Below, one piece after another: positions 26,843-56,206 of a DNA stretch of 64,000 bases (the first letter of the stretch is position 1; each line of letters begins with the position of its first letter). This stretch comes from a virus: the IMG/VR virus record IMGVR_UViG_3300014325_000010, positions 33,130 through 97,129 of that record, one strand, 5' to 3'. The notes under the pieces are model-generated. The model worked only from the letters and a program-made list of their open reading frames with translations, was not told the origin of the DNA and ran no database searches. Position numbers and translations under genes: made by a program.

Positions 26843-27301
26843 TTACAGTGGTTGCTTAACCCACACCCAATGACCTTCACCAAATCCAACTCGATAGTAA
26901 TTTTGATAATCTGGTGGTTTTACCTTAACACGTTCACCTGTTTCATTAGCTTCTATTAGAGTCCAACCATTAGCATTTAACACAGGTTCGAGGGATAATA
27001 GTGTGTTTTGCCCAAAGGGCATACCGACAGTTATTTGTCGAAACCATGTTTCTGGATTTATTTCTCCTGGCACATAAATTGGAATAGCAGAATTTGCAGA
27101 CGCACCTGCAGTTGATTCAACTTCTGAAGTTTCTGGTTTAGACGATTCTTTTTCCGCTTGTGGTTTAGAAGGCACGATTCCTCCAAAATCTAATTTTGTT
27201 AATTCACCATTTTCTTCAGACCATAACGTGAATGGTGCTTCTTCACTATCTGTCCAAGAAGCAATAGTAACACCATTAGAATTTTTTAACATGATCTTCA
27301 T
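26843..27301 (-). CDS. Hypothetical protein
   Basis: 152-aa ORF within the sugar-gene block. Acidic/Ser-rich middle. Confidence 0.4.
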   Translation of the reverse strand: MKIMLKNSNGVTIASWTDSEEAPFTLWSEENGELTKLDFGGIVPSKPQAEKESSKPETSEVESTAGASANSAIPIYVPGEINPETWFRQITVGMPFGQNTLLSLEPVLNANGWTLIEANETGERVKVKPPDYQNYYRVGFGEGHWVWVKQPL

Positions 27302-27908: not shown

Positions 27909-28567
27909 GGTGCTACTAATTTTACCATATGACCTTTATAAGCATCTTCTGGTAATGAAAACGGTTTCATATTCCCGGTACCATATCCTGGGCTGTAATT
28001 GTCATACACAGCAGCAATAGCACTTCTGGTTTCATAATCCTTAATCACAAATTTGTGATGTTCAATAGTAACCGGTGCTCGTTCACCACCTCCAAAAGGA
28101 GATCCAGCGTGAACACCAAAACGGTCACCAGATTTTGCTTTAATTGACAAACGGGTTTGATAATCTGGGAATAATTGTGGAGTCATAAGCACGGACTTAC
28201 AATGATCCCACATATGCGCTCGAGGAAATTCCCAATGATCCTGTTCTAGCCAACAATTATTAATTAGCCATTTTTCCATTGCAGGAGAAAGAGCCTCGTC
28301 ATCATCTATTCGCAGAATATAGTCTCCCTCACAATAAGCTAACGCTGAATTTAGGGAACTTTCAAGATATCCCTTAGATTTAACACATGCTATTTTCAGA
28401 TCAGCATTTGGTATATTAAGGGAGACTGCTTGATCAAATGCCATCGTTCCATCAGTGATCAAGACAAATTCTGTTGACTCTAATTTATCTGCTAATTGAG
28501 CAAGTTTTAAAATGAATGGTCTTGCACACCATTCCATTTTAGATATGCACAGAATGCTTAATTTCAT
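27854..28567 (-). CDS. Glycosyltransferase, GT-A fold (GT2-like)
   Basis: 237 aa. N-terminal Rossmann-like segment and DxD-type YILRIDDDE. Confidence 0.55.
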   Translation of the reverse strand: MKLSILCISKMEWCARPFILKLAQLADKLESTEFVLITDGTMAFDQAVSLNIPNADLKIACVKSKGYLESSLNSALAYCEGDYILRIDDDEALSPAMEKWLINNCWLEQDHWEFPRAHMWDHCKSVLMTPQLFPDYQTRLSIKAKSGDRFGVHAGSPFGGGERAPVTIEHHKFVIKDYETRSAIAAVYDNYSPGYGTGNMKPFSLPEDAYKGHMVKLVAPWDGGIPWTPDWEALQQW

Positions 28568-28648: not shown

Positions 28649-29017
28649 TTACGGAGCAGTTGCCTTCTGTGTTATAAAATTTCCCCAAGCAAGAACTGTT
28701 TCACTGCCGTCATCCATTCGTTTCCAGCTATGTCGATAAGTCCCTGCTTTGAATTTATTCATATCCTCATCAGTAACAACGACGATTGCCCGTTGTGTAT
28801 TTGCACTGCGAGTTGCACTGTAAGTACCAGTGATTGTTGGAGTAAAACTTAAAATTGGTGGTGAAGGTGAAGCATCTAATTTACGTACATCAAATCTGAG
28901 TACCCACCCCGTCATATTGATAGGCACTAAATTTAAATCAATAAGTTCCAATCGAAACGTCTTATCTTCTCCAACAAACAGAACTCCATCTCCGCCAATA
29001 GGTGCATCTAGAGCCAT
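28649..29017 (-). CDS. Hypothetical protein, translationally coupled to the giant repeat protein
   Basis: 122 aa. Start codon overlaps the stop of 29017-33588. Confidence 0.45.
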   Translation of the reverse strand: MALDAPIGGDGVLFVGEDKTFRLELIDLNLVPINMTGWVLRFDVRKLDASPSPPILSFTPTITGTYSATRSANTQRAIVVVTDEDMNKFKAGTYRHSWKRMDDGSETVLAWGNFITQKATAP

Positions 29018-37409: not shown

Positions 37410-37633
37410 AATTTGTCTTCGTCCGCTAGTACAACTTTATTTTCTTTTAACACAGCATATACATGTTGATAAATGTCTGCTATGCTCGTACAACCTAGAA
37501 TTGCTGCTCGACGGTATCCTTCTTCTTTTAATGGAGCACATCTTTCACATGCCCAAAACATACTAGCGGTCCATTCATTGCACCACCAGCATCTATGCAT
37601 GTTTGTATTCCCCGATGCGCTCGAGCCAACCAC
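37406..37633 (-). CDS. Small zinc-ribbon protein
   Basis: 75 aa, CWWCNEW...CERC. Confidence 0.35.
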   Translation of the reverse strand: MVGSSASGNTNMHRCWWCNEWTASMFWACERCAPLKEEGYRRAAILGCTSIADIYQHVYAVLKENKVVLADEDKL

Positions 37634-38357
37634 CTGGATTCATTGTTAGCAAATATCGTTCACACACTGGATCCTGTCGCCATTCATTTGGATGCAAATT
37701 CAAATAATCTTCAACACCACCTCTTGCACCGCGGTCACCATAACGACCTTCTTCATCAGGCACCCAAGCAATATTTGTGTCTTCAACCACAAGACGATCA
37801 CCTACGCGGCACATAGGTGCGTAGAGTTCAAGTTCTTTGAGGACATGAGCTGCAGAGTGATCTGCATCAAGGCTAACTAAGAGAGGGTACTGGATCTCCT
37901 CTCGAATAGCATCAGCTAACCGTGGATCAGTAGAATCACCAGCTAAGAATACAATTCGAGGGTGATTACACTTAACACGGTCTTCAAAGTCAATTGTGAA
38001 GATTTTACCATCTTCAATTTGCAAAGAGTCCATCAAAAACGCAAACCACAGTGCGGAAGCACCAGCATAAGTTCCCGTTTCAATAATGGTTTTCGGTTTG
38101 TGATCATTAATCAAAGCTTGGTAAATCCAAAGGTCATTTGGACACTTCATCATACCAATACCAAGAAAATGAGTATAATGCCAGGTATGTGGTGCGTTAT
38201 ACCACACCTCATGGTATTGCTGAAGAAGTTTACCGTGTTCTTCACGTGTTCGTAGAATTCGTTGTTCTAATTCAGCAATAGAAATAGAAGCATCTTCATC
38301 CACTATGGTAAGTGGCTGTACGCCCGGAATTTTAGGATTAATTGTTGATGTGCTCAT
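37593..38357 (-). CDS. CmcI-family (cephalosporin hydroxylase / rhamnosyl O-methyltransferase-like) SAM methyltransferase
   Basis: 254 aa. IIETGTYAGASALWFA ... LVSLDADHSAAHVLKELELYAPMCRVGDRLVVEDTNI. Confidence 0.65.
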   Translation of the reverse strand: MSTSTINPKIPGVQPLTIVDEDASISIAELEQRILRTREEHGKLLQQYHEVWYNAPHTWHYTHFLGIGMMKCPNDLWIYQALINDHKPKTIIETGTYAGASALWFAFLMDSLQIEDGKIFTIDFEDRVKCNHPRIVFLAGDSTDPRLADAIREEIQYPLLVSLDADHSAAHVLKELELYAPMCRVGDRLVVEDTNIAWVPDEEGRYGDRGARGGVEDYLNLHPNEWRQDPVCERYLLTMNPGGWLERIGEYKHA

Positions 38358-41516: not shown

Positions 41517-42620
41517 TTACTTTGGAGCTACATCCAAACTGATTGTAGGAGCAAGAGCAGGTGCCGGTGCATTTGGTACATTTGGAACATTAGCACCTAG
41601 ATCAATATCAGCTATATGGTCATCGTAAATAGTGCTCGTATTATCGGTAAGAATACTCACTAATTTCAATTGGGTCCCACCAGAAGTTGTACGATACAAT
41701 TTTCTTGCTATCGTTCCAGTTGGACCTACTGCGATCCCAGCAACTTGCGCATAAAACGGACCTCCAGTAAGTGGTCCTGGTACAGTAGCACTTGCACTTG
41801 GCGCTGATTCAGTAGCCGTTGAAACCCAAGTATATGCCCAAGAACGAACACTATCCCCAGACTTAAAAGGAAACGACAGCACTTGTATATTCGAGGTGGA
41901 TGTAAGAATTCTCCCACTCTCATCTCGAAGAGACAAAGTTACTGTGTATCTACCAACTTTCAAGCCATTTACTACTCCTGGTACAGACATTCTACCAGTT
42001 GCAGCCGTTCCATCCGTTAATCCAGTTGTAACCGTTTCGGGTGATGGACTCGAATCAAAAACAATATCACGAAAATAGTTGTCGGAATTTCTAGTCGCTG
42101 GGTATCTACCGGAAGCAGCATATACACCAATTGATCCAGTAAGTGTATTATTCACGATTGCTTTCGAATAGCCATTTTTGATAGTTGCGTAATGCGCTCC
42201 GCTTGGGTTATTGACACTAGCCACAAAGACCACATTAGCATCTATGGCTACTGGAGTAATTGCCTGTTCTTGCCATCCAGAAGGGGTTTCATTAACAAAG
42301 GTAGCAGTTGCAAGCAAAGTACCAGAAGTATTCCACAAATGACCAATATGTGGACCAAGATCACCAAGCATTTTGTAGAACCGAATAGCTGTGACTCTTC
42401 CAGCAACAGAACTTTTTGCTTGAAGTCCTAATTCGTTTGAACTTGTACCACCAGAAGACACAGGAACTTGGGTGGTCAAAACAGTATTTAATACTGGTCC
42501 TGCTCCGGCGTCTTGCGCTCTCGGATTTTGCACCAATAGAAATAATACGAATGCTAGACTCAATTTATGTATCACTTGGTTTCTCTGGTTTTTTGGAAAG
42601 TCCATCTCTTGGAATTCCAT
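41517..42620 (-). CDS. Secreted beta-rich protein with N-terminal signal peptide
   Basis: 367 aa. N-terminal charged n-region then LSLAFVLFLLV and AQDA cleavage-like site. S/T/G/N-rich body. 5' end overlaps the preceding gene by about 50 nt, so the true start may be an internal Met. Confidence 0.45.
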   Translation of the reverse strand: MEFQEMDFPKNQRNQVIHKLSLAFVLFLLVQNPRAQDAGAGPVLNTVLTTQVPVSSGGTSSNELGLQAKSSVAGRVTAIRFYKMLGDLGPHIGHLWNTSGTLLATATFVNETPSGWQEQAITPVAIDANVVFVASVNNPSGAHYATIKNGYSKAIVNNTLTGSIGVYAASGRYPATRNSDNYFRDIVFDSSPSPETVTTGLTDGTAATGRMSVPGVVNGLKVGRYTVTLSLRDESGRILTSTSNIQVLSFPFKSGDSVRSWAYTWVSTATESAPSASATVPGPLTGGPFYAQVAGIAVGPTGTIARKLYRTTSGGTQLKLVSILTDNTSTIYDDHIADIDLGANVPNVPNAPAPALAPTISLDVAPK

Positions 42621-42801
42621 ATCGCTTCATTTTATGATTCATCATACGCGGACTAATACCCAACACCTCTGCTGCCTTTTTTTGATTACCACCAGAAAAT
42701 GCTAGCGATTCGAGTAAAACACTTCTAATAACAGACTTTAACGTTGGTGGTTTCTTTACAGGAACCCATTCACCATTTTCGTCTTCATAATATTGTTTCA
42801 T
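42565..42801 (-). CDS. Fis-family helix-turn-helix DNA-binding protein
   Basis: 78 aa. C-terminal GNQKKAAEVLGISPRMMNHKMKRYGI matches Fis/NtrC-type HTH_8. Confidence 0.5.
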   Translation of the reverse strand: MKQYYEDENGEWVPVKKPPTLKSVIRSVLLESLAFSGGNQKKAAEVLGISPRMMNHKMKRYGIPRDGLSKKPEKPSDT

Positions 42802-42962: not shown

Positions 42963-44432
42963 TCACCGGACCGCGTGTATAACTCGATCTTCATGGTAAG
43001 GTGTCTTCTGTGTCATACGATTCAAAATTTCCTTACGACGTTCTAAAGAAAGCACAGCCCACTTACGAGCAAAGACAGTTGCAGCTGCGGGAAGCTGTTT
43101 TTGTCTTTGGGTCTTAGCCGGCAGGTTCTTTGTTTCTTGTACAGGTTGCACATCCATCTGTACAGGAAATTCCCGATATGGTAATCCGAGAAGGCGATCT
43201 CGAATTTCGTTTGCGTCCACAACCTTTTCTTTAGCATCCGTATTCAATTGCGCCCAAAGAGTAGCAACTTGTGCTCTTTGCAAGACGTCAAGGTTTTGAA
43301 TTTCGGGCCATCTAACCTCATATTTTTTCGGTTCCGGTAAAGCTCCATGGTCAATTAAGCGATCGACCAACTGCTTTACGACTAAAGGTCCGGCAAAAGC
43401 ATTCCGCCTGTCTGTGACCCGCTCAGCCCAATTATCTCTATCCTGATTGCTTGCTAATTCACCGCGCTCGCTACCCATTAAGATTCGTTGAGGAATACCC
43501 GTTCCGGCTGAGATTTGAGAAATAATGGCATCCATTGGTCCTTTAAAGTTAGCGACCTGGGAACCAAGATTCTTCATCTCGATACCACGTGTCAAGATAC
43601 TCCGTCGATATTTATGTAAATAATCTTCTAACTGCTGCTCAGTTTTTTCTTGATCTTTTTCGTCAAAATCCAATTCGGAATCCACATTGAGTTGAATTCC
43701 AGCATCAGCCCTCTTCCAAAATGCCTCAGATCCTCCTCCTGTCACCTTTTCCAGGTCATCGAGGAGGTTCCACACCCGTTCAAGACGAGGGGTTGCGTAT
43801 ACGTTATCGTCAAGAAGACCGTCGGCAATATGGATACAACGTGTCCAATGCGCTTTTCGTCCAACAGTGGAAAACGCTGTTGTCTGTCCACTAGCTCCAG
43901 AAGGGGGCACCCTTCTCAACATGTAATACAGAGGAAGACCCCAACGAGGATTAGTAGCATCTCGTTCAAATTCGTTAATAACCGCATCTTCTTCGGCAAA
44001 TACTTGTAGATAACCAATTGATTCTGGGTCAGATAGTTCTGGAAGTGGTGTCGTAAGCTCGCCAGGTGCGCCAATAAGAATCACACCATATTGTCCAAGC
44101 CCAGAGACAATATCTGCTCGTTGTAAAACAGACCAGATTTTGAGCCGCGTTTCGAGGAGTTCCCATTCCTGCTCAAATTCCGTGAAGGTATCTGGGTCTT
44201 CATCCTCGATAACTTCGGCTCCACCTCGCCAGGTAGCTTGTGGCTTTGCTTCCACAATTCGTCCGGCAACTGCATTACGGCGATAACGATCACGGTACAT
44301 TTGTGGCACAAGAACACGATCATAGCCACAAACAGCAAAAATGTCCCGTTTACCACCGTATGTAAGTCCAGCAAGAGAAGCTAGTCGTGCTCGCGACGAA
44401 ATTACCGAAGCGACAAGAGACCTCAGATTCAT
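42963..44432 (-). CDS. Putative portal protein
   Basis: 489 aa, acidic, located downstream of the large terminase in the late operon and upstream of head genes. Assignment mainly by position and size. Confidence 0.55.
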   Translation of the reverse strand: MNLRSLVASVISSRARLASLAGLTYGGKRDIFAVCGYDRVLVPQMYRDRYRRNAVAGRIVEAKPQATWRGGAEVIEDEDPDTFTEFEQEWELLETRLKIWSVLQRADIVSGLGQYGVILIGAPGELTTPLPELSDPESIGYLQVFAEEDAVINEFERDATNPRWGLPLYYMLRRVPPSGASGQTTAFSTVGRKAHWTRCIHIADGLLDDNVYATPRLERVWNLLDDLEKVTGGGSEAFWKRADAGIQLNVDSELDFDEKDQEKTEQQLEDYLHKYRRSILTRGIEMKNLGSQVANFKGPMDAIISQISAGTGIPQRILMGSERGELASNQDRDNWAERVTDRRNAFAGPLVVKQLVDRLIDHGALPEPKKYEVRWPEIQNLDVLQRAQVATLWAQLNTDAKEKVVDANEIRDRLLGLPYREFPVQMDVQPVQETKNLPAKTQRQKQLPAAATVFARKWAVLSLERRKEILNRMTQKTPYHEDRVIHAVR

Positions 44433-44446
44433 CTTGATTTCCTAAT

Positions 44447-45052
44447 TTACTTTTGGTTCTGTACTGCCGATGAAATCATAAGCCATTGTGCTACAGCTAA
44501 AAGTAATTCGGTTCCCTCACCACTTTTAGGGACCATGGCGTTACATCCGGAGTCCAGAGCTTTTTTACGTCCTGCATAACGTTCGGATAAGCTGGGCCCA
44601 ACAGATCCACTATGAGCAATAATTGGAACCTGCCATCCCGTTAAACGAACTTGTCGTGCGAACTCATAACCATCCATCATACCCAATCGTATATCGAGAA
44701 CGATTAAGTCTGGTAGTCCTTCGTTCACTAAAGAAGCTAATGCGGTTTCTGCATTAGAACAAGTTCGAACTTTATATCCGGTCGTTTTAAGGATCGTAGT
44801 GGTTAATCGTAAAGTAACCGGATCATCCTCGACTACCAAAATTTCTTTTTCACTGGGAACCACTTCTTTGGGAACAATCCGCGCGTTTCCAAATGTAGCA
44901 ACCACAGTACGATTGGTATCGATAGCATCCAATGTTGCTCGGGAGTGAGTAGTGATTACAGACGATAGATGTTTTGTCTGTTGTGTCAAAACGAACAAAA
45001 TTGCAAGAATGCCAAGAACGATGAGCCCTATAAAAATGGCTAAGTAATTCAT
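44447..45052 (-). CDS. Membrane-anchored response-regulator receiver (CheY-like REC) domain protein
   Basis: 201 aa. N-terminal TM helix MNYLAIFIGLIVLGILAILFVL. The REC domain has all conserved positions: ILVVEDDP (acidic pair), LIVLDIRLG (phospho-acceptor Asp), IIAHSGS (Thr/Ser), AMVPK (Lys). Confidence 0.65.
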   Translation of the reverse strand: MNYLAIFIGLIVLGILAILFVLTQQTKHLSSVITTHSRATLDAIDTNRTVVATFGNARIVPKEVVPSEKEILVVEDDPVTLRLTTTILKTTGYKVRTCSNAETALASLVNEGLPDLIVLDIRLGMMDGYEFARQVRLTGWQVPIIAHSGSVGPSLSERYAGRKKALDSGCNAMVPKSGEGTELLLAVAQWLMISSAVQNQK

Positions 45053-45678
45053 GGTTTCTGTTCTTTGTCTAGTTGAGGTGCCTGTTTTTGGAATGATAAC
45101 TGTTGCTGTTGTACAATTTCAAATAATTTTTGCAATAATTCTCCTTGTTTTAAGTTTGCTTGACTCAATGCTTTAAGTTTTTCATTCACACCATTCGCTT
45201 CATGATAAGCAGCATCAGCTTTATCTGCCACATAATTCTTTGATTGTTCAATAGCTTGCGTTAAAACGTTTGTTTGATCATTAGCAATTCGTTGTGTATC
45301 TTCTCGTACTTCTATTTTATGTATATCCGTTTTCATTGCAAGGGCGTCAGTTCGGTCGCGTAAAGAATTAGCAGCAGCATGTAATTGATTTTGTACATTA
45401 CTTGCTTCAGTTACAACTTGTGTTTGAAGTTTTGCTGCTACTTCAATTCGTTCTGCTTTTTCGAGAGCCGCCTTTTCGCGTCGATCAGCAGCATCCATAT
45501 CATGCTGCAATTTTATCATTTCCATCGCGTATTTTTGATCTCGACTTGTCTTCCATAGCATTGCCAAAGTGGAAATTAGAGATACAAGTACGAGGACAAT
45601 TTGTCCACTATAAGTCGCTAGAACAGAACTAGCTGTCGCAGCAGCCGTTGCAGCAGCTGTAGCAGTTGTTGGATCCAT
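45049..45678 (-). CDS. Single-pass membrane protein with long coiled-coil ectodomain/cytoplasmic domain
   Basis: 209 aa. TM IVLVLVSLISTLAML, then heptad-like Gln/Ala/Glu/Lys-rich sequence. Start overlaps the upstream stop (45678) and stop overlaps the downstream start (45049-45052). Confidence 0.5.
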   Translation of the reverse strand: MDPTTATAAATAAATASSVLATYSGQIVLVLVSLISTLAMLWKTSRDQKYAMEMIKLQHDMDAADRREKAALEKAERIEVAAKLQTQVVTEASNVQNQLHAAANSLRDRTDALAMKTDIHKIEVREDTQRIANDQTNVLTQAIEQSKNYVADKADAAYHEANGVNEKLKALSQANLKQGELLQKLFEIVQQQQLSFQKQAPQLDKEQKP

Positions 45679-46226
45679 TAACTTGCCGACTTATTTAATC
45701 CTTCGACGATACGGTTAGCAGCAGCTGTCATTAGTTTTTCTGCAGCAACTGCTGCTGCATTTAATCTATCAGCCGCAGCAATAGCGGCATCATCAATAAC
45801 TTTCTTTGCTGCCATTGCTGCAATCCCTGGATCTGTAGAAGCAGCCGCAATATTAGAACTATCGAGGGCACCTTCAGCATGACTCGCTTTGGCAGTAAGA
45901 GCCACCAATTGACTCAATCTACTGTTAACCGCTAAATGTACTTGTTGCACACTAGCTGCCAAAAATGCCATAATAACGGGAACCAAAAATCCTAACACAA
46001 CTGTGATCAAAGATGAGTTATCTTTATCAGGCCGTATCAGAAAAATAATTAGAATCGCGATAACCGCCACGACGGAAAGACCAATTACAGCCCAAACATA
46101 GATACTCGCATTAGAAGATTGTGTTGGATCAGTAGTTGTGGGGCTATGTGTTTGTATCAAATCATACACCGAACTTTCTCTTAATTTATCGGAGTATCGT
46201 GTCCCGGCGTCGTCTTTATTTTCCAT
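45678..46226 (-). CDS. Two-TM membrane protein (holin-like topology) with Ala-rich C-terminus
   Basis: 182 aa. TM1 IYVWAVIGLSVVAVIAILIIFLI, TM2 LITVVLGFLVPVIMAFLAASV. Start abuts the terminase stop (46226/46227). Confidence 0.5.
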   Translation of the reverse strand: MENKDDAGTRYSDKLRESSVYDLIQTHSPTTTDPTQSSNASIYVWAVIGLSVVAVIAILIIFLIRPDKDNSSLITVVLGFLVPVIMAFLAASVQQVHLAVNSRLSQLVALTAKASHAEGALDSSNIAAASTDPGIAAMAAKKVIDDAAIAAADRLNAAAVAAEKLMTAAANRIVEGLNKSAS

Positions 46227-47783
46227 TTAGAGGTCACCCCTTTTACCCCATACGCCGCCGTGTTTTTTCGGTGTTTCCGAGATGGGCTTACAAAATGCTA
46301 ACATCAAAGCATCTGCGCGGTTAGGAGAAGGGATTCCACGTCGTTTCGCTTCGTCTTTACTTTCAATAAGAATTTTTCCACTGGAACTACGTTTATAGCG
46401 TAGTTCTACAAGTTCGGCAGCAAGATCATCATCATTAGGATCAAGATCGATTTGACCAGACTCAAATAAATCTCGAACTCGCCACCAAGATTCCGCTCGA
46501 AAATTACCAAAATCCTCTTCGCCGGCTTCGCTTGGGCTGGACGATACGTTGATACCAATAACATTTTTCTTCAGTTCGAGTGCACGATCAGTCACACCAC
46601 GGCCAATACCAATCACGTCAATTTTAGCGAGAGTAGCACCAGTTTTGTTCATGTCGGCAATAACGTTACCACATGTTTCCATGGTGTCTGGATTATGGTC
46701 TTCGCGTATGACGCGAACTACGCCACCTCGCCGATGCGCGATACAGGATGTATCGCCACCACCACCAACGTCGACTCCTAATTCGTTTTTCAATCCAGGC
46801 GAGAGAGTTCTCGCCTGGGCTGCTAAAATCCAAGAGATTGGTATAAGTCCGCCAGCATCGGCAAATTCGGGAAACTTCCCTAATATTTTCGATTGCCAAA
46901 GTGGATTTGTGTCGGTTGGGCTATCTCCCTCAGGTGGAATACACCGAACACCATCCTGGGGTAGACAAGGATCTCCATTTCTGTCAATCCAAAACCATTT
47001 TGGAGCCCATTTTCGACGCTTGTCTTCGACGTAGGTGTGTCCAATCAGCTGGCCACGGATAAAGGCAGGAATATCTTCGCCAGTGAAATTTGGTGTTTCG
47101 AAAGCACCAATTTCGATTACATGCCATCCTGATCCCGGTTTGTTGTTTTCAAAGAATTCGCCATTTGGATCATCGGGATTACCAATAACAACCATCTTAC
47201 TCTGGTCATTTGCAATCAACGAATCCGCGGCCTCCCATAGAGGGCCGCGAATTCCGTTCCCCTCATCAAAGATGACCAGGACTCGTGGAGCATGAATTCC
47301 TTGGAACGCGTCAGGGTTAAAATCATCAGGCTTACGACCATAAGCAACAAGTTCTTCTTTACCACCTTCAACCGGTAACAGCCATTCTGTTTGGTTCATT
47401 CTACCACCAAGCTTACCTTTGGTATGAACCCGGTTGATTTCGCGCCACAAAATGGTTCGAACTTGGTGAGCGCTGGGTGCGCTCGTAATCGCAAATGCTT
47501 CGCCAGGTGGGCTTGTGTCAATCCACCAACCCGCGATTCGGCTAGCAATGAAAGATTTCCCTACGTCGTGGCAACTACGAATCAAGGTTTTGCGATGTGT
47601 AGCAACCGCTTCTAATATTCGTTTCTGTGCACTCCACAAAGTATCGCGTAATTTGATTTCGTTCCACGCCACTGGGTCGAGGAGGAAATGGCGACGTGCC
47701 ATCTCCTCTTCTAGCGCCGCCAGTTCGGCGATAGGGTCTTCGATCTCGTAGTCGTCGTCGTTAGAAAATTGGGAAGCTTCCAT
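46227..47783 (-). CDS. Terminase large subunit
   Basis: 518 aa. Walker A IRSCHDVGKS, Walker B VLVIFDEG, C-terminal RNaseH-like nuclease segment (GVDVGGGGD...IGIGRGV...SPNRADALM). Confidence 0.85.
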   Translation of the reverse strand: MEASQFSNDDDYEIEDPIAELAALEEEMARRHFLLDPVAWNEIKLRDTLWSAQKRILEAVATHRKTLIRSCHDVGKSFIASRIAGWWIDTSPPGEAFAITSAPSAHQVRTILWREINRVHTKGKLGGRMNQTEWLLPVEGGKEELVAYGRKPDDFNPDAFQGIHAPRVLVIFDEGNGIRGPLWEAADSLIANDQSKMVVIGNPDDPNGEFFENNKPGSGWHVIEIGAFETPNFTGEDIPAFIRGQLIGHTYVEDKRRKWAPKWFWIDRNGDPCLPQDGVRCIPPEGDSPTDTNPLWQSKILGKFPEFADAGGLIPISWILAAQARTLSPGLKNELGVDVGGGGDTSCIAHRRGGVVRVIREDHNPDTMETCGNVIADMNKTGATLAKIDVIGIGRGVTDRALELKKNVIGINVSSSPSEAGEEDFGNFRAESWWRVRDLFESGQIDLDPNDDDLAAELVELRYKRSSSGKILIESKDEAKRRGIPSPNRADALMLAFCKPISETPKKHGGVWGKRGDL

Positions 47784-48955: not shown

Positions 48956-49568
48956 CTACAAGCCACCAGTCGCGGTTTAAAGCCGAGTTCAACCCGGCTT
49001 TAGGCTAGTATGAGCCTAAACTTTCGTAGAGCCCTGGGCTCGACCAGTGGCCGGTAAGTAAGCATACCGGGCGGATGTGGACTCGGCGGTTAGCTGGATT
49101 TCCGCGATTAAAAATTCTGAGCCATAAATTTTGGAATAGAAGGGATAGTTTATCAAAGGAGGTAGAATACAATTCAAAAATTGGAATCGTTGCGAAGCCA
49201 AAAACCAGGAGTTCTAAAGGAGGGCCTAGGGTTTCGAGCTTGTTGATGGAAAATAGAAGTTGGAGGTTGGAAGTTGAGGGTTGCGAATTCCGGGTTTAGA
49301 GTTTCGCGGTTCGAGAGGGAGGAGGCGGGTTTAGGGATTCTGATTGGTTTAGGGATTCTGATTGGATTAGAGAAATGGAATTTGGATGAGGATTCCTACG
49401 AGCGCGCATATAAATTTAAGATGACTGATTTCGGGACAAAAAATTTTTACCGTCGTGCGTGCGCCGGGAGTTTTGAGGGAGTTTTGTAACGTGGTAAGTA
49501 ACGCGACAGCGTTACCGTTACGGTCTAAGTAACAGTAACGCTATACCGCGCGTAGCGTGCGGGTGTTA

Positions 49569-49643
49569 CTAGCGGATACGTCGTCCAAGTAACCCGATGA
49601 TGGTAACAAACCAGATGACGAAAGGAACCATATCTAGAGTCAT
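49569..49643 (-). CDS. Candidate 24-aa hydrophobic micro-protein
   Basis: Reverse complement gives AACGAGGTTACACA-ATG ACT CTA GAT ATG GTT CCT TTC GTC ATC TGG TTT GTT ACC ATC ATC GGG TTA CTT GGA CGA CGT ATC CGC TAG (MTLDMVPFVIWFVTIIGLLGRRIR). Strong Shine-Dalgarno with 7-nt spacing, within the conserved ACGAGGTT motif. Too short to be in the ORF track. Confidence 0.3.
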   Translation of the reverse strand: MTLDMVPFVIWFVTIIGLLGRRIR

Positions 49644-49655
49644 TGTGTAACCTCG

Positions 49656-50048
49656 TTACTCGGCAGGGTTGCAGTATGAGATAGCAACGACGATACCGCC
49701 GTCAGGTATCGGCAGTGTTACCGATTGCAGGACACCTTTACCGTAGACGCCTTGTCCTGGGATTGCAGGATACGCAACGCATACCTCGTTAACGTGTGCA
49801 AGGGCGTATGCAGCCATTCCGTTTACGGGTGTAGGTCCGTTAGGTGAACTGCAAGCGGATACTACGACCATACAGAGCAGGGTAATACCTGCCGTAGCTA
49901 CTCTGACAAGGTGTAGAAGCATCGTAGCTGGTTTCACTGGTACAGACTGCGAAGCGCCAAGTTTGATAAGCTTCGCGTAGTCTTCTACGTTCATGCGGCA
50001 GGTAACGCAAAGCTTGTTAGTGTCGGTTTCGGTTTTCTTTTTAGCCAC
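49656..50048 (-). CDS. Small membrane/lipoprotein-like protein
   Basis: GTG start preceded by AACCGAGGTTAAACC (good Shine-Dalgarno). Internal segment MLLHLVRVATAGITLLCMVVVSAC-SSPNG has a lipobox-like VVSAC. Either a type-II membrane anchor or a lipoprotein if translation starts at the internal ATG (49922). Confidence 0.4.
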   Translation of the reverse strand: MAKKKTETDTNKLCVTCRMNVEDYAKLIKLGASQSVPVKPATMLLHLVRVATAGITLLCMVVVSACSSPNGPTPVNGMAAYALAHVNEVCVAYPAIPGQGVYGKGVLQSVTLPIPDGGIVVAISYCNPAE

Positions 50049-50141
50049 GGTTTAACCTCGGTTTAAGACGTTACCAAACGACTAACGGTCGTTACCCCCT
50101 AGACTAGCAGGTAACGACCGTTAGGGTGTTACTACGCGGTG

Positions 50142-50840
50142 TTACCGACGGTTGCCACGGTTGCCACGGTTGCCGCTACCGGCTCCCACGGTTTCGCGTT
50201 CGACCGTTGCGCTCGGCTCGACCGTTGCGCTCGGCTCGACCGTTGCGCTCGGCTCGACCGTTGCGCTCGGCTCGACCGTTGCGCTCGGCTCGACCGTTGC
50301 GCTCGTCGCACTGGCGGCAGACATACCCGCGATAATGTCCACCGTTGGCGCTGCGGTCGTTGCGGTCGTTGCGTCCACCGTTGGCGCTGCGGTCGTTGCG
50401 AACGGGTTGGACGTTGCATTGCGGCGCGCGCGTCCTTTGCCGCCCCTACGCACCCACAGCGTTACGTCACTGTCCAGCGAGCCGAAACCAGAAACCGCGA
50501 ACCCGGTTGTCTGCGCCTTGCTATCCCAGTCGTTAGCAAGCGCAATCGCCTTTGCCGCGTTCTCCGGTGTCGCGTTACCGATGTGCTGATACGCGGTAAC
50601 GCGGGTGCCGCTACCCTCGATACGGCCCGGTGCAACGTTGATACGAACGGCGATACCGTCCTTTGTGCAATACGCGGTGATACGCGCGCGCCGCATGTCG
50701 CTGGTGTCGGCTGGAACCAGAAGCGAGAAGTAGCCGTTCTTCCAGTCGTTGAGCACAAGTAGAATCGACGCAACGGCGATACCCGTTGCTTTGCTCACCG
50801 TCTCGCACGCCGCTTGCAATGCCGTTTGAACTGCGTTCAT
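50142..50840 (-). CDS. Hypothetical protein with C-terminal SATVEP x6 repeats (coding status uncertain)
   Basis: 232-aa ORF. N-terminal 150 aa look globular, with codon third positions GC-biased. Start preceded by AACGAGGTTTAAGGTA. C-terminus is encoded by an 18-bp tandem repeat x6 (50200-50307). The region is GC-rich, so several overlapping ORFs on both strands also exist. Confidence 0.35.
   Translation of the reverse strand: MNAVQTALQAACETVSKATGIAVASILLVLNDWKNGYFSLLVPADTSDMRRARITAYCTKDGIAVRINVAPGRIEGSGTRVTAYQHIGNATPENAAKAIALANDWDSKAQTTGFAVSGFGSLDSDVTLWVRRGGKGRARRNATSNPFATTAAPTVDATTATTAAPTVDIIAGMSAASATSATVEPSATVEPSATVEPSATVEPSATVEPSATVERETVGAGSGNRGNRGNRR
50200..50307. repeat. 18-bp tandem repeat x6 (tcgaccgttgcgctcggc), plus nearby 9-bp x3 (ggttgccac, 50150-50177) and 10-bp x3 (gtaggaaacc, 50934-50963)
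   Basis: Direct reading of the sequence. Head-to-tail identical units. Confidence 0.9.
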
Positions 50841-51979
50841 TACCTTAAACCTCGTTACTGCCGTATCGTTTCGCGTTATTGCGTTACGACCGACAGCAAC
50901 TACTGTAGCACGCTACGTGCCAACGTAGGGACTGTAGGAAACCGTAGGAAACCGTAGGAAACAAAACCGCTATAGCAACGTAGTCTGCCTGTAAGCAGAC
51001 AAAAGGTTACTTTTTAACCCTAATACGGTATTACCTCGTTAGCAGGCTAACGACCGTTATATACACACAGTATTATATGTACGTTGCTACCTCGGTAACG
51101 TTAGCTCTGCCATATCGCCGTAACTGACGCAAACGTAAGCGTAACGCGATAGGGTCTAGAACGTGCGAGGTTTCGATATGAGCGGCGCGCAACGTCACCC
51201 GCTACTTACCTATTACCGGGTTCCCGTTCGTTAAACCTCGTCAAATTTACGTGTAACGTAACTCAGTAACTTACAGGCTTTTGGCGTAACGCCCTAATAC
51301 CGCGTTATTACAATCTGCAATACCGTTATTACAATCTGTAATGTGCTTACGTTACTAGCAGGCTGCTACTTTTGTAACACCTTGCGGGGTAACGCCCTAA
51401 TACGAGGTAACGCCCTAATACCGCGTGGCAAAGACCGTGCCATCCGCCTATCGTTCAGCTTCAAGCTCGGCCGTGGTCCGGGTCCATTTTCACCTTCCAA
51501 GTCTGGTTTCGGCCAGCTCTCCTTTTCGCCGTACTTCCATGGTCCTTCGTACTGTTCCAAATCCTACTGGGTTGGTCGGTATCCCTCGGTTCCTTCGGCG
51601 GAGACTCACAAGCTGCCGGCCGGCGGCTCGTTGATTTTCAATCCTGATTTCAGATTGGATGGGCGACCGACTGATCCGACCGACTGATCCGACCGACTAA
51701 CATCATCCGGATTCCATCGCGATGGATGATCAGAGGGAAACCAGGACTGGTGCTGCGGACGAACCCATAATACATCGGATGGTTCTTAACCCATCTGACC
51801 CCGCGAAAATAGATGCTAGCATTTGGCATCCGCAGCAATCCGACCCTCACCCAAGGGTATACCCGATATAACCCGAGTTTATACCTTTTACGCCCCGCGC
51901 CGCTGGATTCCAGCGATGCGTTCTGGATCAGGATAGACGCGTTCTCGACGCTATCTAAACGTATAGAAACCGCGCGAAC

Positions 51980-52002
51980 GCGGTAAAATAGCGTACCGGG
52001 CG
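51980..52002 (+). promoter_or_regulatory. Conserved promoter-like element copy A (GCGGTAAAATAGCGTACCGGGCG), about 60 nt upstream of the 52061 gene
   Basis: Shares G-TAAAATA-(G/C)CG(T)TA..GGCG core with four other sites (52980-53006, 55048-55075, 61936-61954, 62664-62688), each upstream of a plus-strand gene start. Confidence 0.5.
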
Positions 52003-52060
52003 CCCCGCGTTTGAAACCGCGCGGTTTAGCTCCAATTGATAATCAGAACGGGAGGTAATA

Positions 52061-52345
52061 ATGACAACGACAAGAATAGTCAAGCTACGTGCAGATCGTG
52101 AGTTAACCAAACGTGGTGGGTATGGCGTGGATCGGCTGCTCCCAAGCAGAAATTCCAATGAAGCAGTGTATTGGAAGGACGGAGACAGCTACGTTGCTTC
52201 CAAGGATTCTCACGGTGACTACGTGATCTTCTCGATAACCGGCGTCGGTGAGATCCGTTGGGATGTACGACCCCTGGAGTGGCATCCCAGAAACCTCGAC
52301 GTCATTGACTACTTCTTCGAGCGAGGCACCGAAGAGCGGGCGTAA
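52061..52345 (+). CDS. Hypothetical early protein
   Basis: 94 aa. Strong RBS GGGAGGTAATA-ATG. Confidence 0.55.
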   Translation: MTTTRIVKLRADRELTKRGGYGVDRLLPSRNSNEAVYWKDGDSYVASKDSHGDYVIFSITGVGEIRWDVRPLEWHPRNLDVIDYFFERGTEERA

Positions 52346-52420
52346 GACGTTGCGTGGTGGATAGGTGCAGACTCCTATCTATCACGGAGCAATCTTGCTC
52401 CCTCACCGAAAGGTTCTGGT

Positions 52421-52711
52421 ATGATCAAGGTCTACCATGGCAAAAACTTTGGGCAGATGGCGCTGAAACAGACTCAGTGGCCAGCCGATTACGAGCTGGT
52501 CGCGACAGTGAAAACCGACGATCTCGAGAAAGCGTTCGAGCTCACGAACCACATCAACAGTATCTGGATGCAGAATCCAGATGTGACCGCCGAGCCCGGA
52601 CAGCACCGATCCACCTCAGTCGGCGACGTGATGGTGGACGAAAGCGCCAGAACGTGGCAGTGCGGGGATTTTGGATGGCGGGAGATCGCCTCCGTACAAG
52701 GAGATGCTTAG
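52421..52711 (+). CDS. Hypothetical early protein
   Basis: 96 aa. RBS AAAGG upstream. An alternative overlapping frame (52354-52851) looks like Arg-rich GC artefact. Confidence 0.45.
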   Translation: MIKVYHGKNFGQMALKQTQWPADYELVATVKTDDLEKAFELTNHINSIWMQNPDVTAEPGQHRSTSVGDVMVDESARTWQCGDFGWREIASVQGDA

Positions 52712-52979
52712 CCGTCAAGGATGTGGTGGATGCCAATCCTCTTGTGCCAAGGTCGGCTGCCGACGGAAGAAGCAGTGCAAGCGTTGCGAGAAGCCATACA
52801 GCTTTGATAACCATTCGGGGTTTTGCTGGTGGTGTTGGTTCCGATTTGTAAGGAGAAGTTAGATCCGAGGGATGCTGGATGGCCTGGATCTCGGGCCATC
52901 TGGTGTCCGTTAAACGACGCCCACCCAGGCTACATTTTTATTTTGCCGAGCGTAGTTCGCCGTTAGGAAAACGCCGAAG

Positions 52980-53006
52980 GCGCGGTAAAATAGCGTTACC
53001 GGGCGG
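52980..53006 (+). promoter_or_regulatory. Conserved promoter-like element copy B (GCGCGGTAAAATAGCGTTACCGGGCGG)
   Basis: 43 nt upstream of the 53049 gene. Followed by a partial second copy CGCCCGGTAAAAGGCG. Confidence 0.5.
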
Positions 53007-53048
53007 CGCTTAAGTCGCCCGGTAAAAGGCGTAAAGGGTGGTTAAATC

Positions 53049-53489
53049 ATGGTCGTAAAATTTATGGGTATCCCCGCCCCTCATTTCACGGCTAGGCTCA
53101 GCGTCGAGGAATACCGAGCTTATAAAGAAGACGAGCTCTTCCTCCAGCGCCAGGCAGCGTGGAACGCGAAGGCGGCAATTGAACTCAAGGAAAAACGGGA
53201 GCCTGAGTTCTGGTGGTGGCAAGATGAGAAGGGCGAGTGGGTAGGCAAATGCTCGGGTAAGAAGAACCCGACAACAGGCCTGCCGTGCGAGGCTACGATT
53301 AAGGCTGTTGGACTGGTCCACGTGGAAGGAAAGCGCGTGCGGAGTTCCGACGGCGTGATCAAGGTGAGCGACGAAGCCCACTACTGCATGGAATGTCGAC
53401 CGCGGATCTTTGGACGGGTGAGCGGGCGACCGAGTCGCGGGATTCCAATGTGGGGTTCCGATAACGCCGATTACGAAGGCGAGGTTTAA
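53049..53489 (+). CDS. Hypothetical early protein (Trp/Cys-containing)
   Basis: 146 aa. RBS AAAGGGTGG. Confidence 0.55.
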   Translation: MVVKFMGIPAPHFTARLSVEEYRAYKEDELFLQRQAAWNAKAAIELKEKREPEFWWWQDEKGEWVGKCSGKKNPTTGLPCEATIKAVGLVHVEGKRVRSSDGVIKVSDEAHYCMECRPRIFGRVSGRPSRGIPMWGSDNADYEGEV

Positions 53490-53490
53490 A

Positions 53491-54030
53491 ATGGATGTTC
53501 GAAAATTGAAAGCCTCGGGGCTGTACGTCGAGGCACATCAGAGTAGCGTCGCGAAAGAGCCGACGAACCTGGTGTGTGAGGCGTGCAATAAGACCCTCAT
53601 GCAAATCCCGACCGGCGGGATGCTCTTCACCCAAACCCACGGCCGCTGCACCTGCAGCTGGGGCTGCTGCGAGACGGCCAAGCCGACGAATCGCCCGCAT
53701 CCCCGACACCTCGGCCATCGTGTCGCTGCCCCGAAACTCCAGCCGGGCAAAATCCTGACCCGCAACCATGGGTTCGCGGACGACAAGAAGCACAATGCTG
53801 TGAGGAGTAGCGACTCCGGCATCAACTACATGTTCTTCACGAACTACGAATCGGTGAGTCTGACCGACCGTGAAATTCGCGCTCGCTGGTCCATCGCTGG
53901 TGGTGATCCCTATCGCCATCGTTGTTCTCACGAACACGATTGCTGCGCGTGCCACTTTCATTCCGAGATTCACATCGAGCGTCGTCGGCGATTCGTGGTT
54001 GTTACCCAATTCTGGGGCATTAACATTTAA
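53491..54030 (+). CDS. Hypothetical Cys/His-rich protein
   Basis: 179 aa. CEACNK...CTCSWGCCE...CSHEHDCCACHFHSEIH, likely metal-binding. ATG 2 nt after the previous stop. Confidence 0.5.
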   Translation: MDVRKLKASGLYVEAHQSSVAKEPTNLVCEACNKTLMQIPTGGMLFTQTHGRCTCSWGCCETAKPTNRPHPRHLGHRVAAPKLQPGKILTRNHGFADDKKHNAVRSSDSGINYMFFTNYESVSLTDREIRARWSIAGGDPYRHRCSHEHDCCACHFHSEIHIERRRRFVVVTQFWGINI

Positions 54031-54044
54031 TTCGAGGTGGGCAA

Positions 54045-54533
54045 ATGAAAATCCTGGTTGCACGATTCTGGAACAACGAACCAAGCAAGTGGCACGAGAC
54101 TTATCGCGACGTCATTGGTCTTCGTCGTCTGTCTTCTCATCGTTGGGAAGTTCGTCGTAAGTCCACGACTTCATTAGGATTCGACGACACCATAGTTAGC
54201 GCCGACGAATGCGAGTTCGAGATGGTGGATGAGACCGCCAAGTGCTTCGTGTTCGATTCCACTGAAGAAGCATACGGTGCCTGCCAAACTCGCGACGACA
54301 TCAAAAACGGCGACATGCTTGTCATCCCCTCCGAGCAGGTTGTTGGTCTCGCCGGAACATGGCCAGTGGCTGTGACGGATGAACACGGAGAATTGCACTT
54401 CGTCAATGGGGATGCAAATATTCGTCGATTGATGACCGACGTTAAGTGCTCGAAAGAGCAGGTCAATGCCGCCGTGCGCTTCGCCCAAAAGCACAACTGG
54501 ATCGTTTCGTACCCGTTCCGCCAGGAGATTTGA
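54045..54533 (+). CDS. Hypothetical early protein
   Basis: 162 aa. RBS TCGAGGTGGG. Confidence 0.55.
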   Translation: MKILVARFWNNEPSKWHETYRDVIGLRRLSSHRWEVRRKSTTSLGFDDTIVSADECEFEMVDETAKCFVFDSTEEAYGACQTRDDIKNGDMLVIPSEQVVGLAGTWPVAVTDEHGELHFVNGDANIRRLMTDVKCSKEQVNAAVRFAQKHNWIVSYPFRQEI

Positions 54534-54536
54534 TCA

Positions 54537-54709
54537 TGAGCCGAGCTATTGTCGCTCGATGCATCATTTGTGGGGACGTATACATGTTGACCATCCCCAC
54601 CGGAATGACAAAACCGAATCCGTTCGTCTGCAAATCATGTAAGTCCAACCAGGGAGTTCAAAATGAAGAAACAAGTTCAGCGCACAACCAAGACGGTTGG
54701 CGTAGCTGA
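54537..54709 (+). CDS. Small zinc-ribbon protein
   Basis: 57 aa from ATG 54537 (TGATCATGA overlap with the previous stop). CIICGD...CKSCKS. The ORF-track entry 54446-54709 is the same frame extended upstream. Confidence 0.45.
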
Positions 54710-54995
54710 TCCGACCGAAGTGATCAGCTACGTTGTCCGAGGGAATCTTCCCTTCAACGGACCATGGTACGAGCTCAAGCTTAGTGAGTTCCAGCAGATC
54801 GTCAGTGGGAGCTTTATATACAAGACGATAGAAGGTGAGATCATCAATGGCAGGACGCTGGACGAATTCGTCGCGAATCTCATCTTCGACGGGCTGGAAG
54901 CCGAGCACGAGCTCAAGGAGATCGAGCGGCGGGAGAACGATCCGACCGGCGAGTTTGCGGCGGCTGATCGGAAGATGGGGGATGCGACACCATAA
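54663..54995 (+). CDS. Hypothetical early protein
   Basis: 110-aa ORF. Confidence 0.5.
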   Translation: MKKQVQRTTKTVGVADPTEVISYVVRGNLPFNGPWYELKLSEFQQIVSGSFIYKTIEGEIINGRTLDEFVANLIFDGLEAEHELKEIERRENDPTGEFAAADRKMGDATP

Positions 54996-55047
54996 GAGAT
55001 GTCTGACGGCCGATTGACCGTAAATAGACCGCTAGAAAACCCCGCCC

Positions 55048-55075
55048 GCGTAGTAAAATACGCTTAAGGCGTAGC
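55048..55075 (+). promoter_or_regulatory. Conserved promoter-like element copy C (GCGTAGTAAAATACGCTTAAGGCGTAGC)
   Basis: 63 nt upstream of the 55138 start. Contains dyad TACGC-TTAAG-GCGTA after the TAAAATA box. Confidence 0.5.
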
Positions 55076-55137
55076 CTACCCTTGGAAAAAGCCGAATGTT
55101 CCTGAAAAGAGTGAGCAATAATAGACAAGGAGGTCAC

Positions 55138-55356
55138 ATGTCGGATGAATGGATCGGAAAACGCGTGAAGGTATTCGAGTTGGACGACGAGGGAGATCCA
55201 ACCGAAGTGGTCGCGGCCATCGGAACGGTTCGCGACGCAGATGAGCACCACGGCTTGGGTATTGAGCCCGATGCCGAGTGGCTGAACAACGTTGTGGTCT
55301 ACGGCGACGGACTTATGAGCGCCGAAACTCGAAGTGTTGAGGTGATTGACGAATAA
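55138..55356 (+). CDS. Hypothetical early protein
   Basis: 72 aa. Perfect RBS CAAGGAGGTCAC-ATG. The ORF-track start at 55096 is less likely. Confidence 0.55.
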   Translation: MSDEWIGKRVKVFELDDEGDPTEVVAAIGTVRDADEHHGLGIEPDAEWLNNVVVYGDGLMSAETRSVEVIDE

Positions 55357-55643
55357 TGGACAAACAAGCGATCGCTTTTACATGGGTTCCTACTGCAAAA
55401 ATCGCGCAGATTCAGGAGTTAATTTCGAATGCTTTAGTAGCAAATCCAGAACCATTGCAGGAAGGTGATGTAGTCGCGGCGCTGTTCTTTTTGATCCTTG
55501 GTACGTTGATGATGAGAACGATGGATGAGCAAACAAGGATAGCAGGAGCAACATTCCTCGAGCTCATATCTGATGTGTTTGAGCAGACCGGGTGTCACCA
55601 TCAAGTACACGCAGGGCAGGAAAATCCCGAAACGAAGCATTGA
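55356..55643 (+). CDS. Hypothetical protein
   Basis: 95 aa. TAATG stop-start overlap. Confidence 0.4.
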   Translation: MDKQAIAFTWVPTAKIAQIQELISNALVANPEPLQEGDVVAALFFLILGTLMMRTMDEQTRIAGATFLELISDVFEQTGCHHQVHAGQENPETKH

Positions 55644-55644
55644 T

Positions 55645-55860
55645 ATGAGAAAGATTGAACGTACATCGGACGGGTATTACCATCTCGCATTGACAAACAG
55701 GGAACTCGGCGCGCTGATACAACAGATCGACATCGAGCCAGAAGAACCAACTTCGGCTATGTACAGCAACGCAATTATTGCGGCTGAAATCATAGACGCC
55801 ATCGCGGAAGCATACAAACCAAACGAGGAGGCCGTTGACGATGACGATCAACCCGCCTGA
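55645..55860 (+). CDS. Hypothetical acidic protein
   Basis: 71 aa (MRKIERTSDGYYHLALTNRELGA...). Start chosen at the internal ATG after the previous stop. Weak RBS. Confidence 0.35.
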   Translation: MRKIERTSDGYYHLALTNRELGALIQQIDIEPEEPTSAMYSNAIIAAEIIDAIAEAYKPNEEAVDDDDQPA

Positions 55861-56206
55861 TTGGTACTTCATCTACCTCAATCCAACCTTCGAGGAGGTT
55901 CAGAAACTCGCCGAGAGCATGTGGGATACATGCCGCATCATCAAACATGAGGATGATATCGTCATCGCATCTGGATTAGGGAACACACACGAATCAATGC
56001 TGAAGGCATACCGCACACATACACAGAATTTGCGAGCGATGCCGGAAGCTTACATTTTGTACCATCGTGGTGGGATCGCGTTCTTCAACCTCGAGGATTT
56101 GGGAGGGAGCAGAGCTGCTCGAGCCGCACGATGGGAGAGGTTCTTCTGCGACTTGCACATAAAAATGTTGAAAGATTTAATACGGGAGTCCGGGTACGCA
56201 TTGTGA
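55835..56206 (+). CDS. Hypothetical early protein
   Basis: 123 aa. RBS GAGGAGG upstream. Confidence 0.5.
   Translation: MTMTINPPDWYFIYLNPTFEEVQKLAESMWDTCRIIKHEDDIVIASGLGNTHESMLKAYRTHTQNLRAMPEAYILYHRGGIAFFNLEDLGGSRAARAARWERFFCDLHIKMLKDLIRESGYAL

Follow-up and report, generated by a model that had tools for sequence, protein, structure and literature searches.

What is a membrane-anchored receiver (REC) domain doing between the terminase and portal genes of a phage? The question arises from a 64,000-nucleotide stretch of IMG/VR record IMGVR_UViG_3300014325_000010 (positions 33,130 to 97,129), hereafter the window, which is part of the 112-kb metagenomic contig k141_2788800 (ENA ERZ27252489), with 48 kb of the contig lying outside it. 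In the interval from the gene for the terminase large subunit (TerL) to the portal gene, three tightly packed minus-strand open reading frames (ORFs), here called genes A, B, and C, encode a 182-aa holin-like protein with two transmembrane (TM) segments (A, 45678..46226; hydropathy and family alignment), a 209-aa protein with one TM segment and an amphipathic helix of ~155 residues (B, 45049..45678; hydropathy and an AlphaFold2, AF2, model), and a 201-aa protein with one TM segment and a REC domain (C, 44447..45052; hydropathy, Pfam, and AF2). The TAA stop of TerL runs straight into the ATG of A, the end of A shares 1 nt with the start of B (TAATG), and B shares 4 nt with C (ATGA), which agrees with the three coupled ORFs described in an earlier sequence-only reading of the stretch. 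A 14-nt gap separates C from the portal gene, and AGGA precedes the portal start. The ratio of nonsynonymous to synonymous substitution rates against relatives (0.18 for A, measured against the related contig L039, 0.15 for B, and 0.11 for C) indicates purifying selection on A, B, and C. We favor the view that the slot between TerL and portal holds a holin-type membrane module (A and B) together with its phosphorylation-dependent regulator (C), and give it slightly less than an even chance of being right.

Gene C encodes a complete REC domain that is tethered to the membrane. Hydropathy places a single TM segment at residues 4-22 (nt 44987-45043), a helical linker covers residues 23-~55, and the REC domain occupies residues 70-200 (nt 44453-44845). 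The sequence-only reading had recognized a complete REC domain with its phospho-site and had named profile and structure prediction as checks; both were run and both support the assignment. The Pfam hidden Markov model PF00072 (Response_reg) matches residues 71-187 with an E value of 3.7e-18 and 66.1 bits (cutoff 30.2), and the AF2 model, with a predicted local distance difference test score (pLDDT) of 90, shows a (beta/alpha)5 fold in which five strand-helix units follow the TM-plus-linker helix. The best Foldseek matches are the OmpR/PhoB-type receivers YycF, KdpE, and PmrA, with target-normalized template-modeling scores up to 0.92 and a root-mean-square deviation of 1.6 Å. The phospho-site residues anticipated from the sequence are present as the acidic pair D76/D77 (nt 44822-44827), the phospho-acceptor D120 (nt 44693-44695), S148 (nt 44609-44611), and K176 (nt 44525-44527), all on the minus strand and placed by family alignment with codon coordinates checked. 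The same alignment shows that these residues are conserved in P0002, the one close homolog of C (71% identity) among about 5.8 billion clustered proteins, and in the REC protein of the high-GC phage L009. The protein ends in a conserved tail, QWLMISSAV. Response_reg was the sole Pfam match in C, the remainder being the TM helix and linker, and the earlier statement that the receiver comes with neither kinase nor output domain holds for C and, by Pfam, for the window.

In its (beta/alpha)5 fold, acidic pair, phospho-Asp, Ser/Thr, and Lys, C is like the single-domain regulators CheY, DivK, and Spo0F and the receivers of the OmpR/PhoB type. It differs from them in being anchored by an N-terminal TM segment with a linker of ~45 residues, in being a late-operon phage gene without a cognate kinase or output domain, and in having P-K-S for K-P and a non-aromatic switch residue.

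Comparison with relatives shows which of the three genes belong together. L003, the phage contig that encodes P0002 and whose TerL and portal are 87% and 82% identical to those of the window phage, has the order TerL, B', C', portal and no A (junction 3708-4971). In L039 (portal 76% identical), TerL is followed by A', a 62-aa 1-TM protein, a 59-aa HTH_17 (excisionase-like) protein, and portal, with no B or C (junction 396-1390, compared with 44433-46226 in the window). Because L003 has B and C without A and L039 has A without B and C, A and B+C are separable modules, and the idea that A, B, and C form one fixed unit had to be abandoned. The junction between TerL and portal is thus a variable cargo slot in this phage group, and A is an accessory module that is not in L003. 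B and C, on the other hand, stay together. The pair recurs in the unrelated high-GC phage L009/L010, where it is located after the tail-fiber genes and keeps the 4-nt overlap, so that the B/C ATGA overlap is present in the window, L003, and L009/L010. The REC protein of L009 also has an N-terminal TM segment, and it shares with C TM residues, the phospho-site residues, and a QW..I..SV tail at 36-40% identity. B and C are a conserved, translationally coupled pair.

The link to lysis comes from the company that the families of A and B keep in other phages. A full HMMER scan of 1.84 billion proteins with the B-family profile gave 45 representatives, all of 100-280 aa, in which a TM anchor is combined with a helix that varies in length and with an invariant motif, A.AAY.E.N..N.KL, in the C-terminal part; in B, this motif is DKADAAYHEANGVNEKLKA (nt 45169-45225, minus strand, family alignment). 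When viral, metagenome, and genome contigs were scanned with B profiles, only a handful of loci emerged. A tblastn search of GenBank phages with B and with the family member P0125 gave no match, and no family in Pfam, PHROG, PADLOC, or NCBIfam matched B. In four other lineages, the B-family gene lies two genes after a Phage_lysozyme gene that comes after a gene for a 67-aa 2-TM protein (L007), directly before a GH108-type muramidase (L013), directly before a Phage_lysozyme gene (E 2e-46) in a prophage of a Sphingomonadales metagenome-assembled genome (L032), and directly after a Hydrolase_2 gene (L034). Endolysins of four different types are thus neighbors of the B-family gene in 4 of about 11 lineages, for which a rough binomial estimate of chance is about 0.003. 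For the A family, a Peptidase_M15_4 gene begins 4 nt after the A-family gene of L028. Adjacency to an endolysin, a habit of holins, is seen in these homologs of A and B and not in the window.

Two of these cassettes have features of their own. In L032 (JBBRXQ010000081), a 121-aa ORF with a lipobox-like LTLASC (6027-6392) follows the B-like gene and the lysozyme and may be an o-spanin or u-spanin, and the 276-aa Phage_lysozyme has two C-terminal TM segments, which is unusual. In L007 (GCA_043956535.1, JBINNZ010004957), the B homolog overlaps by 4 nt a gene for a 769-aa protein (10612-12921) whose single Pfam match is a weak CarboxypepD_reg; the next genes encode a PAP2 phosphatase and a GT2-like protein, which makes this an oddly extended lysis cassette.

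The architecture of A and B is that of small holin-type proteins. The two TM segments of A, residues 46-64 and 73-91 by hydropathy, agree with the two-TM, holin-like topology proposed for it at the outset. The A family comprises 26 proteins with an invariant loop, RPDxDN, and a conserved helix after TM2, QQVHLAVNSRLSQL. Its genes lie where a tail module or late operon ends, or ahead of terminase genes, and in viral contigs the next one to three genes, starting within -3..+4 nt, almost always encode small TM proteins. In L039, the 62-aa 1-TM protein overlaps A' by ATGA and has an N-out/C-in charge pattern. B has one TM segment (residues 24-42, nt 45553-45609), and its AF2 model is a single continuous helix from residue 4 to residue 199 (pLDDT 85), of which 32% is DEKRH. 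The small size, TM segments, and charged cytoplasmic C terminus of holins thus have counterparts in A (two TM segments) and B (one TM segment and a charged helix).

The description of B as a one-TM protein with a long coiled coil needs partial revision. The TM segment and the long helix stand, and the coiled coil does not. The hydrophobic periodicity of B is 3.6 residues and not the heptad value of 3.5 (power 102, against 35 ± 18 in shuffles measured at 3.5), so that long amphipathic helix is the safer term. By analogy, a period of ~3.6 suits a helix that is hydrophobic on one face and may lie along the membrane. The topology of B is predicted to be N-out/C-in with a cytoplasmic helix, because 23 of the 25 family members with a detected TM segment have no K/R before it and 2-6 K/R after it, and because the 3-TM variants of the family (P0169, P0173, L017, and L033) have strongly basic first loops.

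A 2-TM gene followed by a 1-TM gene has a close architectural precedent. F1-cluster mycobacteriophages encode LysF1a (two TM segments) and then, with an ATGA overlap, LysF1b (one TM segment, N-out/C-in), which has basic residues after the TM segment and an extended charged cytoplasmic helix; both proteins are required for efficient lysis (PMC13056207). A and B repeat this order with overlapping start and stop codons, and B is predicted to have each of the LysF1b features, namely an N-terminal TM segment, N-out/C-in topology, basic residues after it, and a charged helix. A 2-TM partner of the LysF1b type is found in the window (A/B overlap of 1 nt) and in L039 (ATGA) and is absent from L003. 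There are, however, differences. No sequence similarity was detected or is expected, as the class includes about 20 phams that are unrelated to one another; the LysF1 genes adjoin lysin A/B, whereas A, B, and C lie between TerL and portal; and LysF1b proteins have 92-150 aa compared with the 209 aa of B and have no REC partner.

Two further ideas about B were tried and rejected. Its motifs YHEAN and LQHD suggested a His-phosphotransfer (DHp-like) donor for C, but both His residues are Arg in the REC-paired protein P0123, and the AF2 model contains no helical hairpin. The central B-family profile matches the 11/22-mer amphipathic repeats of the apolipoproteins ApoA-IV, ApoE, and ApoA-I (E 8e-9), with several repeat-level matches of 14-17 bits. 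In contrast to these proteins, B lacks proline punctuation and is a membrane-anchored protein of a prokaryotic virus; homology was rejected and the match treated as an analogy of repeat and composition.

Additional support for pairing a receiver with lysis genes comes from phages that are unrelated to the window phage. A scan of viral contigs with the C-family alignment led to the IMG/VR contigs L036-L038, in which TerL is followed by a structural protein, a 60-aa protein, a 133-aa 1-TM helical protein, a REC-only protein that overlaps the 133-aa protein by 8 nt, and more 1-TM proteins. A GenBank phage search with a REC of the L036-L038 type as query then found cultured Alteromonas phages. In the siphovirus vB_AmaS-R9Y2 (L040, OM732336), gp13 (one TM segment, charged helix), gp12 (REC only, 83 bits), and gp11 (Glyco_hydro_108 and PG_binding_3) are joined by 4-nt overlaps throughout. 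In the T7-like vB_AspP-H4/4 (L041, NC_047834), the holin gp42 (two TM segments) is followed by gp43 (one TM segment), gp44 (REC only), gp45 (two membrane domains in its annotation), TerS, and TerL, and the order of 2-TM protein, 1-TM protein, and REC beside terminase genes is the same as in the window. The RECs of R9Y2, H4/4, and L036-L038 keep the DD, D, S/T, and K residues. Those of R9Y2 and H4/4 are proteins of 150-153 aa in which Pfam found no DNA-binding domain.

The Alteromonas RECs (R9Y1-3, H4/4, and R8W; phrog_731-type) are therefore like C in being REC-only proteins coupled to an upstream 1-TM helical protein, here within a holin/endolysin cluster, and the podovirus RECs also in lying beside terminase genes. 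They differ from C in being soluble, with no TM segment, and in having a C-terminal extension of ~35 aa; their 23-30% identity to C is generic, and their 1-TM partners are not members of the B family. Because the REC similarity is only generic and the partners are not homologous, the association of a REC with a 1-TM protein either has more than one origin or is very ancient. The homolog of the H4/4 REC in phage R8W (g48) has been called 'PhoB' and interpreted as an auxiliary gene for low phosphate, with no link drawn to the holin two genes upstream (PMC8228385). In GenBank, the H4/4 and R8W RECs carry the label 'putative DNA-binding response regulator'. Both the 'PhoB' auxiliary metabolic gene (AMG) reading and the 'DNA-binding' annotation look wrong, given that the H4/4 and R9Y2 proteins are REC-only and sit in a holin/endolysin cluster.

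Apart from these cases, true phage REC genes are rare. Of 50,697 GenBank phage records, 15 gave a match to C, mostly records that resemble bacterial contigs, and the REC matches in the three unverified faecal 'Bacteriophage sp.' records that were inspected were ordinary bacterial-type response regulator/kinase genes and were rejected as phage modules. A 152-aa neighbor of the REC gene in L037, for which an SLT-type lysozyme had been guessed from a motif, was not confirmed as such, as it had no Pfam or PDB match and matched only phrog_3108 (function not assigned). Within the receivers, residues 166-172 of C (LDSGCNA), in the alpha4-beta5 region, have Gly-Cys in place of the usual Gly-Ala of the G-A-D-D-Y motif, and Gly-Cys is present in 4 of 5 phage lysis-context RECs (the observation concerns C, the L009 REC, R9Y2 gp12, and H4/4 gp44). 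It may point, weakly, to a common feature or to a redox-sensitive Cys.

Taken together, the families of A and B neighbor lysis genes, and REC genes lie in the lysis cassettes of unrelated cultured phages. Contact between B and C, phosphorylation of C, and any effect on lysis are inferences. The lysis-timing switch that the sequence-only reading had tentatively offered thus has comparative support from the endolysin neighbors of the A and B families and from the REC-only proteins of Alteromonas phage cassettes, with the window itself lacking an endolysin. In the mechanism that we propose, A would be a 2-TM holin-like protein and B a 1-TM protein with a cytoplasmic amphipathic helix, of the LysF1b architectural class. 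C would be anchored in the same membrane as B with its phosphorylatable REC domain in the cytoplasm beside the B helix, and its phosphorylation state would depend on a histidine kinase of the host or on a small phosphodonor molecule such as acetyl phosphate. OmpR/PhoB-type receivers dimerize through the alpha4-beta5-alpha5 face on phosphorylation. Phosphorylation may accordingly alter the self-association of C through this face or its binding to B; dimerization might draw two TM helices together or change binding to the B helix, and either change could nucleate or restrain a membrane lesion and bring the permeabilizing step earlier or later. With a host kinase or acetyl phosphate as phosphodonor, the timing of lysis would follow the state of the host. 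A broader proposal is that a REC in a holin cluster times lysis across several unrelated lineages (the window phage, the high-GC phage, and the cultured Alteromonas siphoviruses and podoviruses), with phosphorylation by a host kinase or acetyl phosphate gating a 1-TM holin-like partner; this we consider doubtful.

The timing of lysis determines phage burst size and fitness. To our knowledge, none of the known regulators of lysis timing, including dual-start antiholins, T4 RI/RIII, P1 LydB, and N4 gp62, uses two-component chemistry. The nearest conceptual relatives are the T4 holin T with RI/RIII and the N4 pinholin gp63 with its regulator gp62, in which timing is set by a small protein, distinct from the holin, that attaches to the soluble domain of the latter, and for gp62/gp63 the regulatory contacts are proposed to be cytoplasmic (PMC12642591). 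C would share with these the concept of a separate holin-binding timing protein. They differ in that there is no homology, their signals are related to superinfection, and none is a two-component receiver domain. The literature searched contained no relevant account of REC domains in lysis cassettes or of membrane-anchored response regulators, and a REC, here membrane-anchored, coupled to a 1-TM lysis-cassette protein is a new combination of known parts that is not described there. If the proposal is true, phages would read the signaling or energy state of the host directly and biochemically at lysis, and control of a membrane lesion would be a new class of receiver-domain output. It would also correct the published 'PhoB/AMG' interpretation and add a hitherto unnoticed two-component-type 'lysis clock input'. 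Since an analogous module is present in cultured Alteromonas phages (R9Y1-3, H4/4, and R8W), the idea is directly testable.

Several observations weigh against a regulated holin module. The lysis link derives entirely from gene neighborhoods in other phages, and neither A nor B matches a curated holin, spanin, or lysis family (for A, in Pfam, PHROG, and NCBIfam). Pfam searches over the called genes of the 64-kb window found no endolysin, no histidine kinase (HisKA, HATPase_c), and no REC output domain. The phage's true lysis cassette was thus not seen in the window, outside which lie 48 kb of the contig, and the earlier remark that no endolysin or o-spanin is nearby is confirmed by this search and by a lipobox search around B. 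As a canonical two-component system the locus is also incomplete, with no kinase gene adjoining C or anywhere across the window. The positive-inside rule is the sole basis for the topology of B. The C-terminal motif of B is kept in B proteins that have no REC partner as well, so it is not a REC-docking site. Lastly, the switch position of C (K-3) is Met and not aromatic, and the usual K-P is replaced by P-K-S, from which the beta5-alpha5 face of C reads as atypical.

Some of these points would be expected if C were a decoy for host signaling. On this explanation, C is a phosphate sink carried as a moron and tethered near host histidine kinases, where it drains or reports the phosphoryl groups of an envelope-stress or nutrient two-component system and blunts the host response; B would be only a scaffold, and neither would have to do with lysis. 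The complete phospho-site and the resemblance of C to OmpR/PhoB-type receivers, which are partners of membrane HisKA kinases, are consistent with a decoy, as are the missing output domain, the variable slot between TerL and portal, which is of the kind that collects morons, and the absence of a nearby endolysin. However, a decoy leaves unexplained why several unrelated phages couple a REC translationally to a 1-TM helical protein and why REC pairs occur amid holins and endolysins, and its position in the late operon would probably mean expression too late to pre-empt most host responses. We consider this explanation unlikely.

The atypical beta5-alpha5 region (PKS for KP, Met at the switch) and the lack of a cognate kinase in the window would be accommodated by a phospho-independent adaptor, in which the REC fold would serve, in the manner of a pseudo-receiver, as a protein-binding module in a membrane (lysis) complex and the Asp would be structural. 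Yet the D-D, D, S/T, and K residues are kept in both phage REC families across 23-48% identity. Because such conservation of the phospho-site is not expected after loss of phosphochemistry, a loss is disfavored, and we judge an adaptor to be distinctly unlikely.

Small membrane proteins in a variable locus could also form a superinfection-exclusion or other membrane-defense module that is unrelated to lysis, as some defense systems have membrane effectors. PADLOC, however, gave nothing for A or B and only weak REC-type matches for C, which is no meaningful match to a defense system, and membership in one was rejected; the location in a late structural operon and the repeated endolysin/holin neighborhood likewise speak against it and make a defense role quite improbable.

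That B is an i-spanin and C an unrelated insertion is extremely unlikely: B does share with Rz-type i-spanins an N-terminal TM segment and a long helical soluble domain, and the analogous 133-aa protein of L037 has weak Rz-like PHROG matches (E about 1e-3), but B itself has no spanin PHROG match, its charge pattern predicts the opposite topology (N-out/C-in), some family members have three TM segments, and no lipobox ORF that could encode an o-spanin partner was found within -400..+700 nt of B in 12 loci, so the i-spanin-like character first attributed to B was rejected. Equally remote is a PhoB-like transcription regulator or low-phosphate AMG, as published for the R8W homolog and suggested by the H4/4 and R8W annotations (PMC8228385), since Pfam searches of C, R9Y2 gp12, and H4/4 gp44 detected no DNA-binding domain and C is anchored in the membrane.

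The genes that flank the module have recognizable identities. TerL (518 aa, 46227..47783, minus strand) matches phrog_2 (E 2.2e-28) and shows 34-41% identity to annotated phage terminases by tblastn, and the portal protein (489 aa, 42963..44432, minus strand) matches Phage_portal_3 (E 4.8e-27) and phrog_146 (E 9e-62). The window phage is siphovirus-like, with a single long minus-strand late operon in the order TerS-like gene, TerL, A-B-C, portal, a sugar-modification cluster, capsid, tail tube, a 2077-aa tape measure, and distal tail genes. Candidate promoter sites were no more frequent than in shuffled sequence. Terminator-like sites numbered 10, a modest excess over 5.7 ± 2.7 in shuffled sequence, with none strong between TerL and portal, and an Rfam scan found no RNA family in the window.

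Directly after the portal gene lie genes for a 78-aa Fis-type HTH_8 protein (42565-42801) and a DUF4082 protein (41517-42620). This block is common to the window, L003 (6639-7975), and L039 (3025-4300), irrespective of the presence of B and C, and a small DNA-binding protein amid a head-assembly block is unusual. The HTH_8 protein was considered as a split output domain of C and rejected, because L039, which lacks C, conserves it too.

The sugar-modification cluster lies on the minus strand within the late structural operon between portal and capsid (22309-28567, 13855-15087, and 37593-38357). Its members include Aminotran_3 (E 1e-52), a CTP_transf_3 cytidylyltransferase with Cupin_2, an FkbM methyltransferase, SIS_2, a weak GT2 match, HAD_SAK_2, two RMNT_CmcI/Methyltransf_24 proteins, and Glycos_transf_1, which suggests virion glycosylation or the synthesis of a nonulosonic-acid-like sugar. 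Also in the late operon, a 1523-aa gene (29017-33588, minus strand), whose single Pfam match is a weak FAD_SOX, holds an antisense 679-aa ORF (31181-33220, plus strand) and is the sole late-operon stretch with positive GC skew (+0.06 to +0.09, compared with -0.04 to -0.16 elsewhere). In the early region, an island at 49500-56000, with no Pfam match on record, has a GC content of 0.50-0.62, against about 0.42 in the rest of the phage, and contains many overlapping ORFs on both strands.

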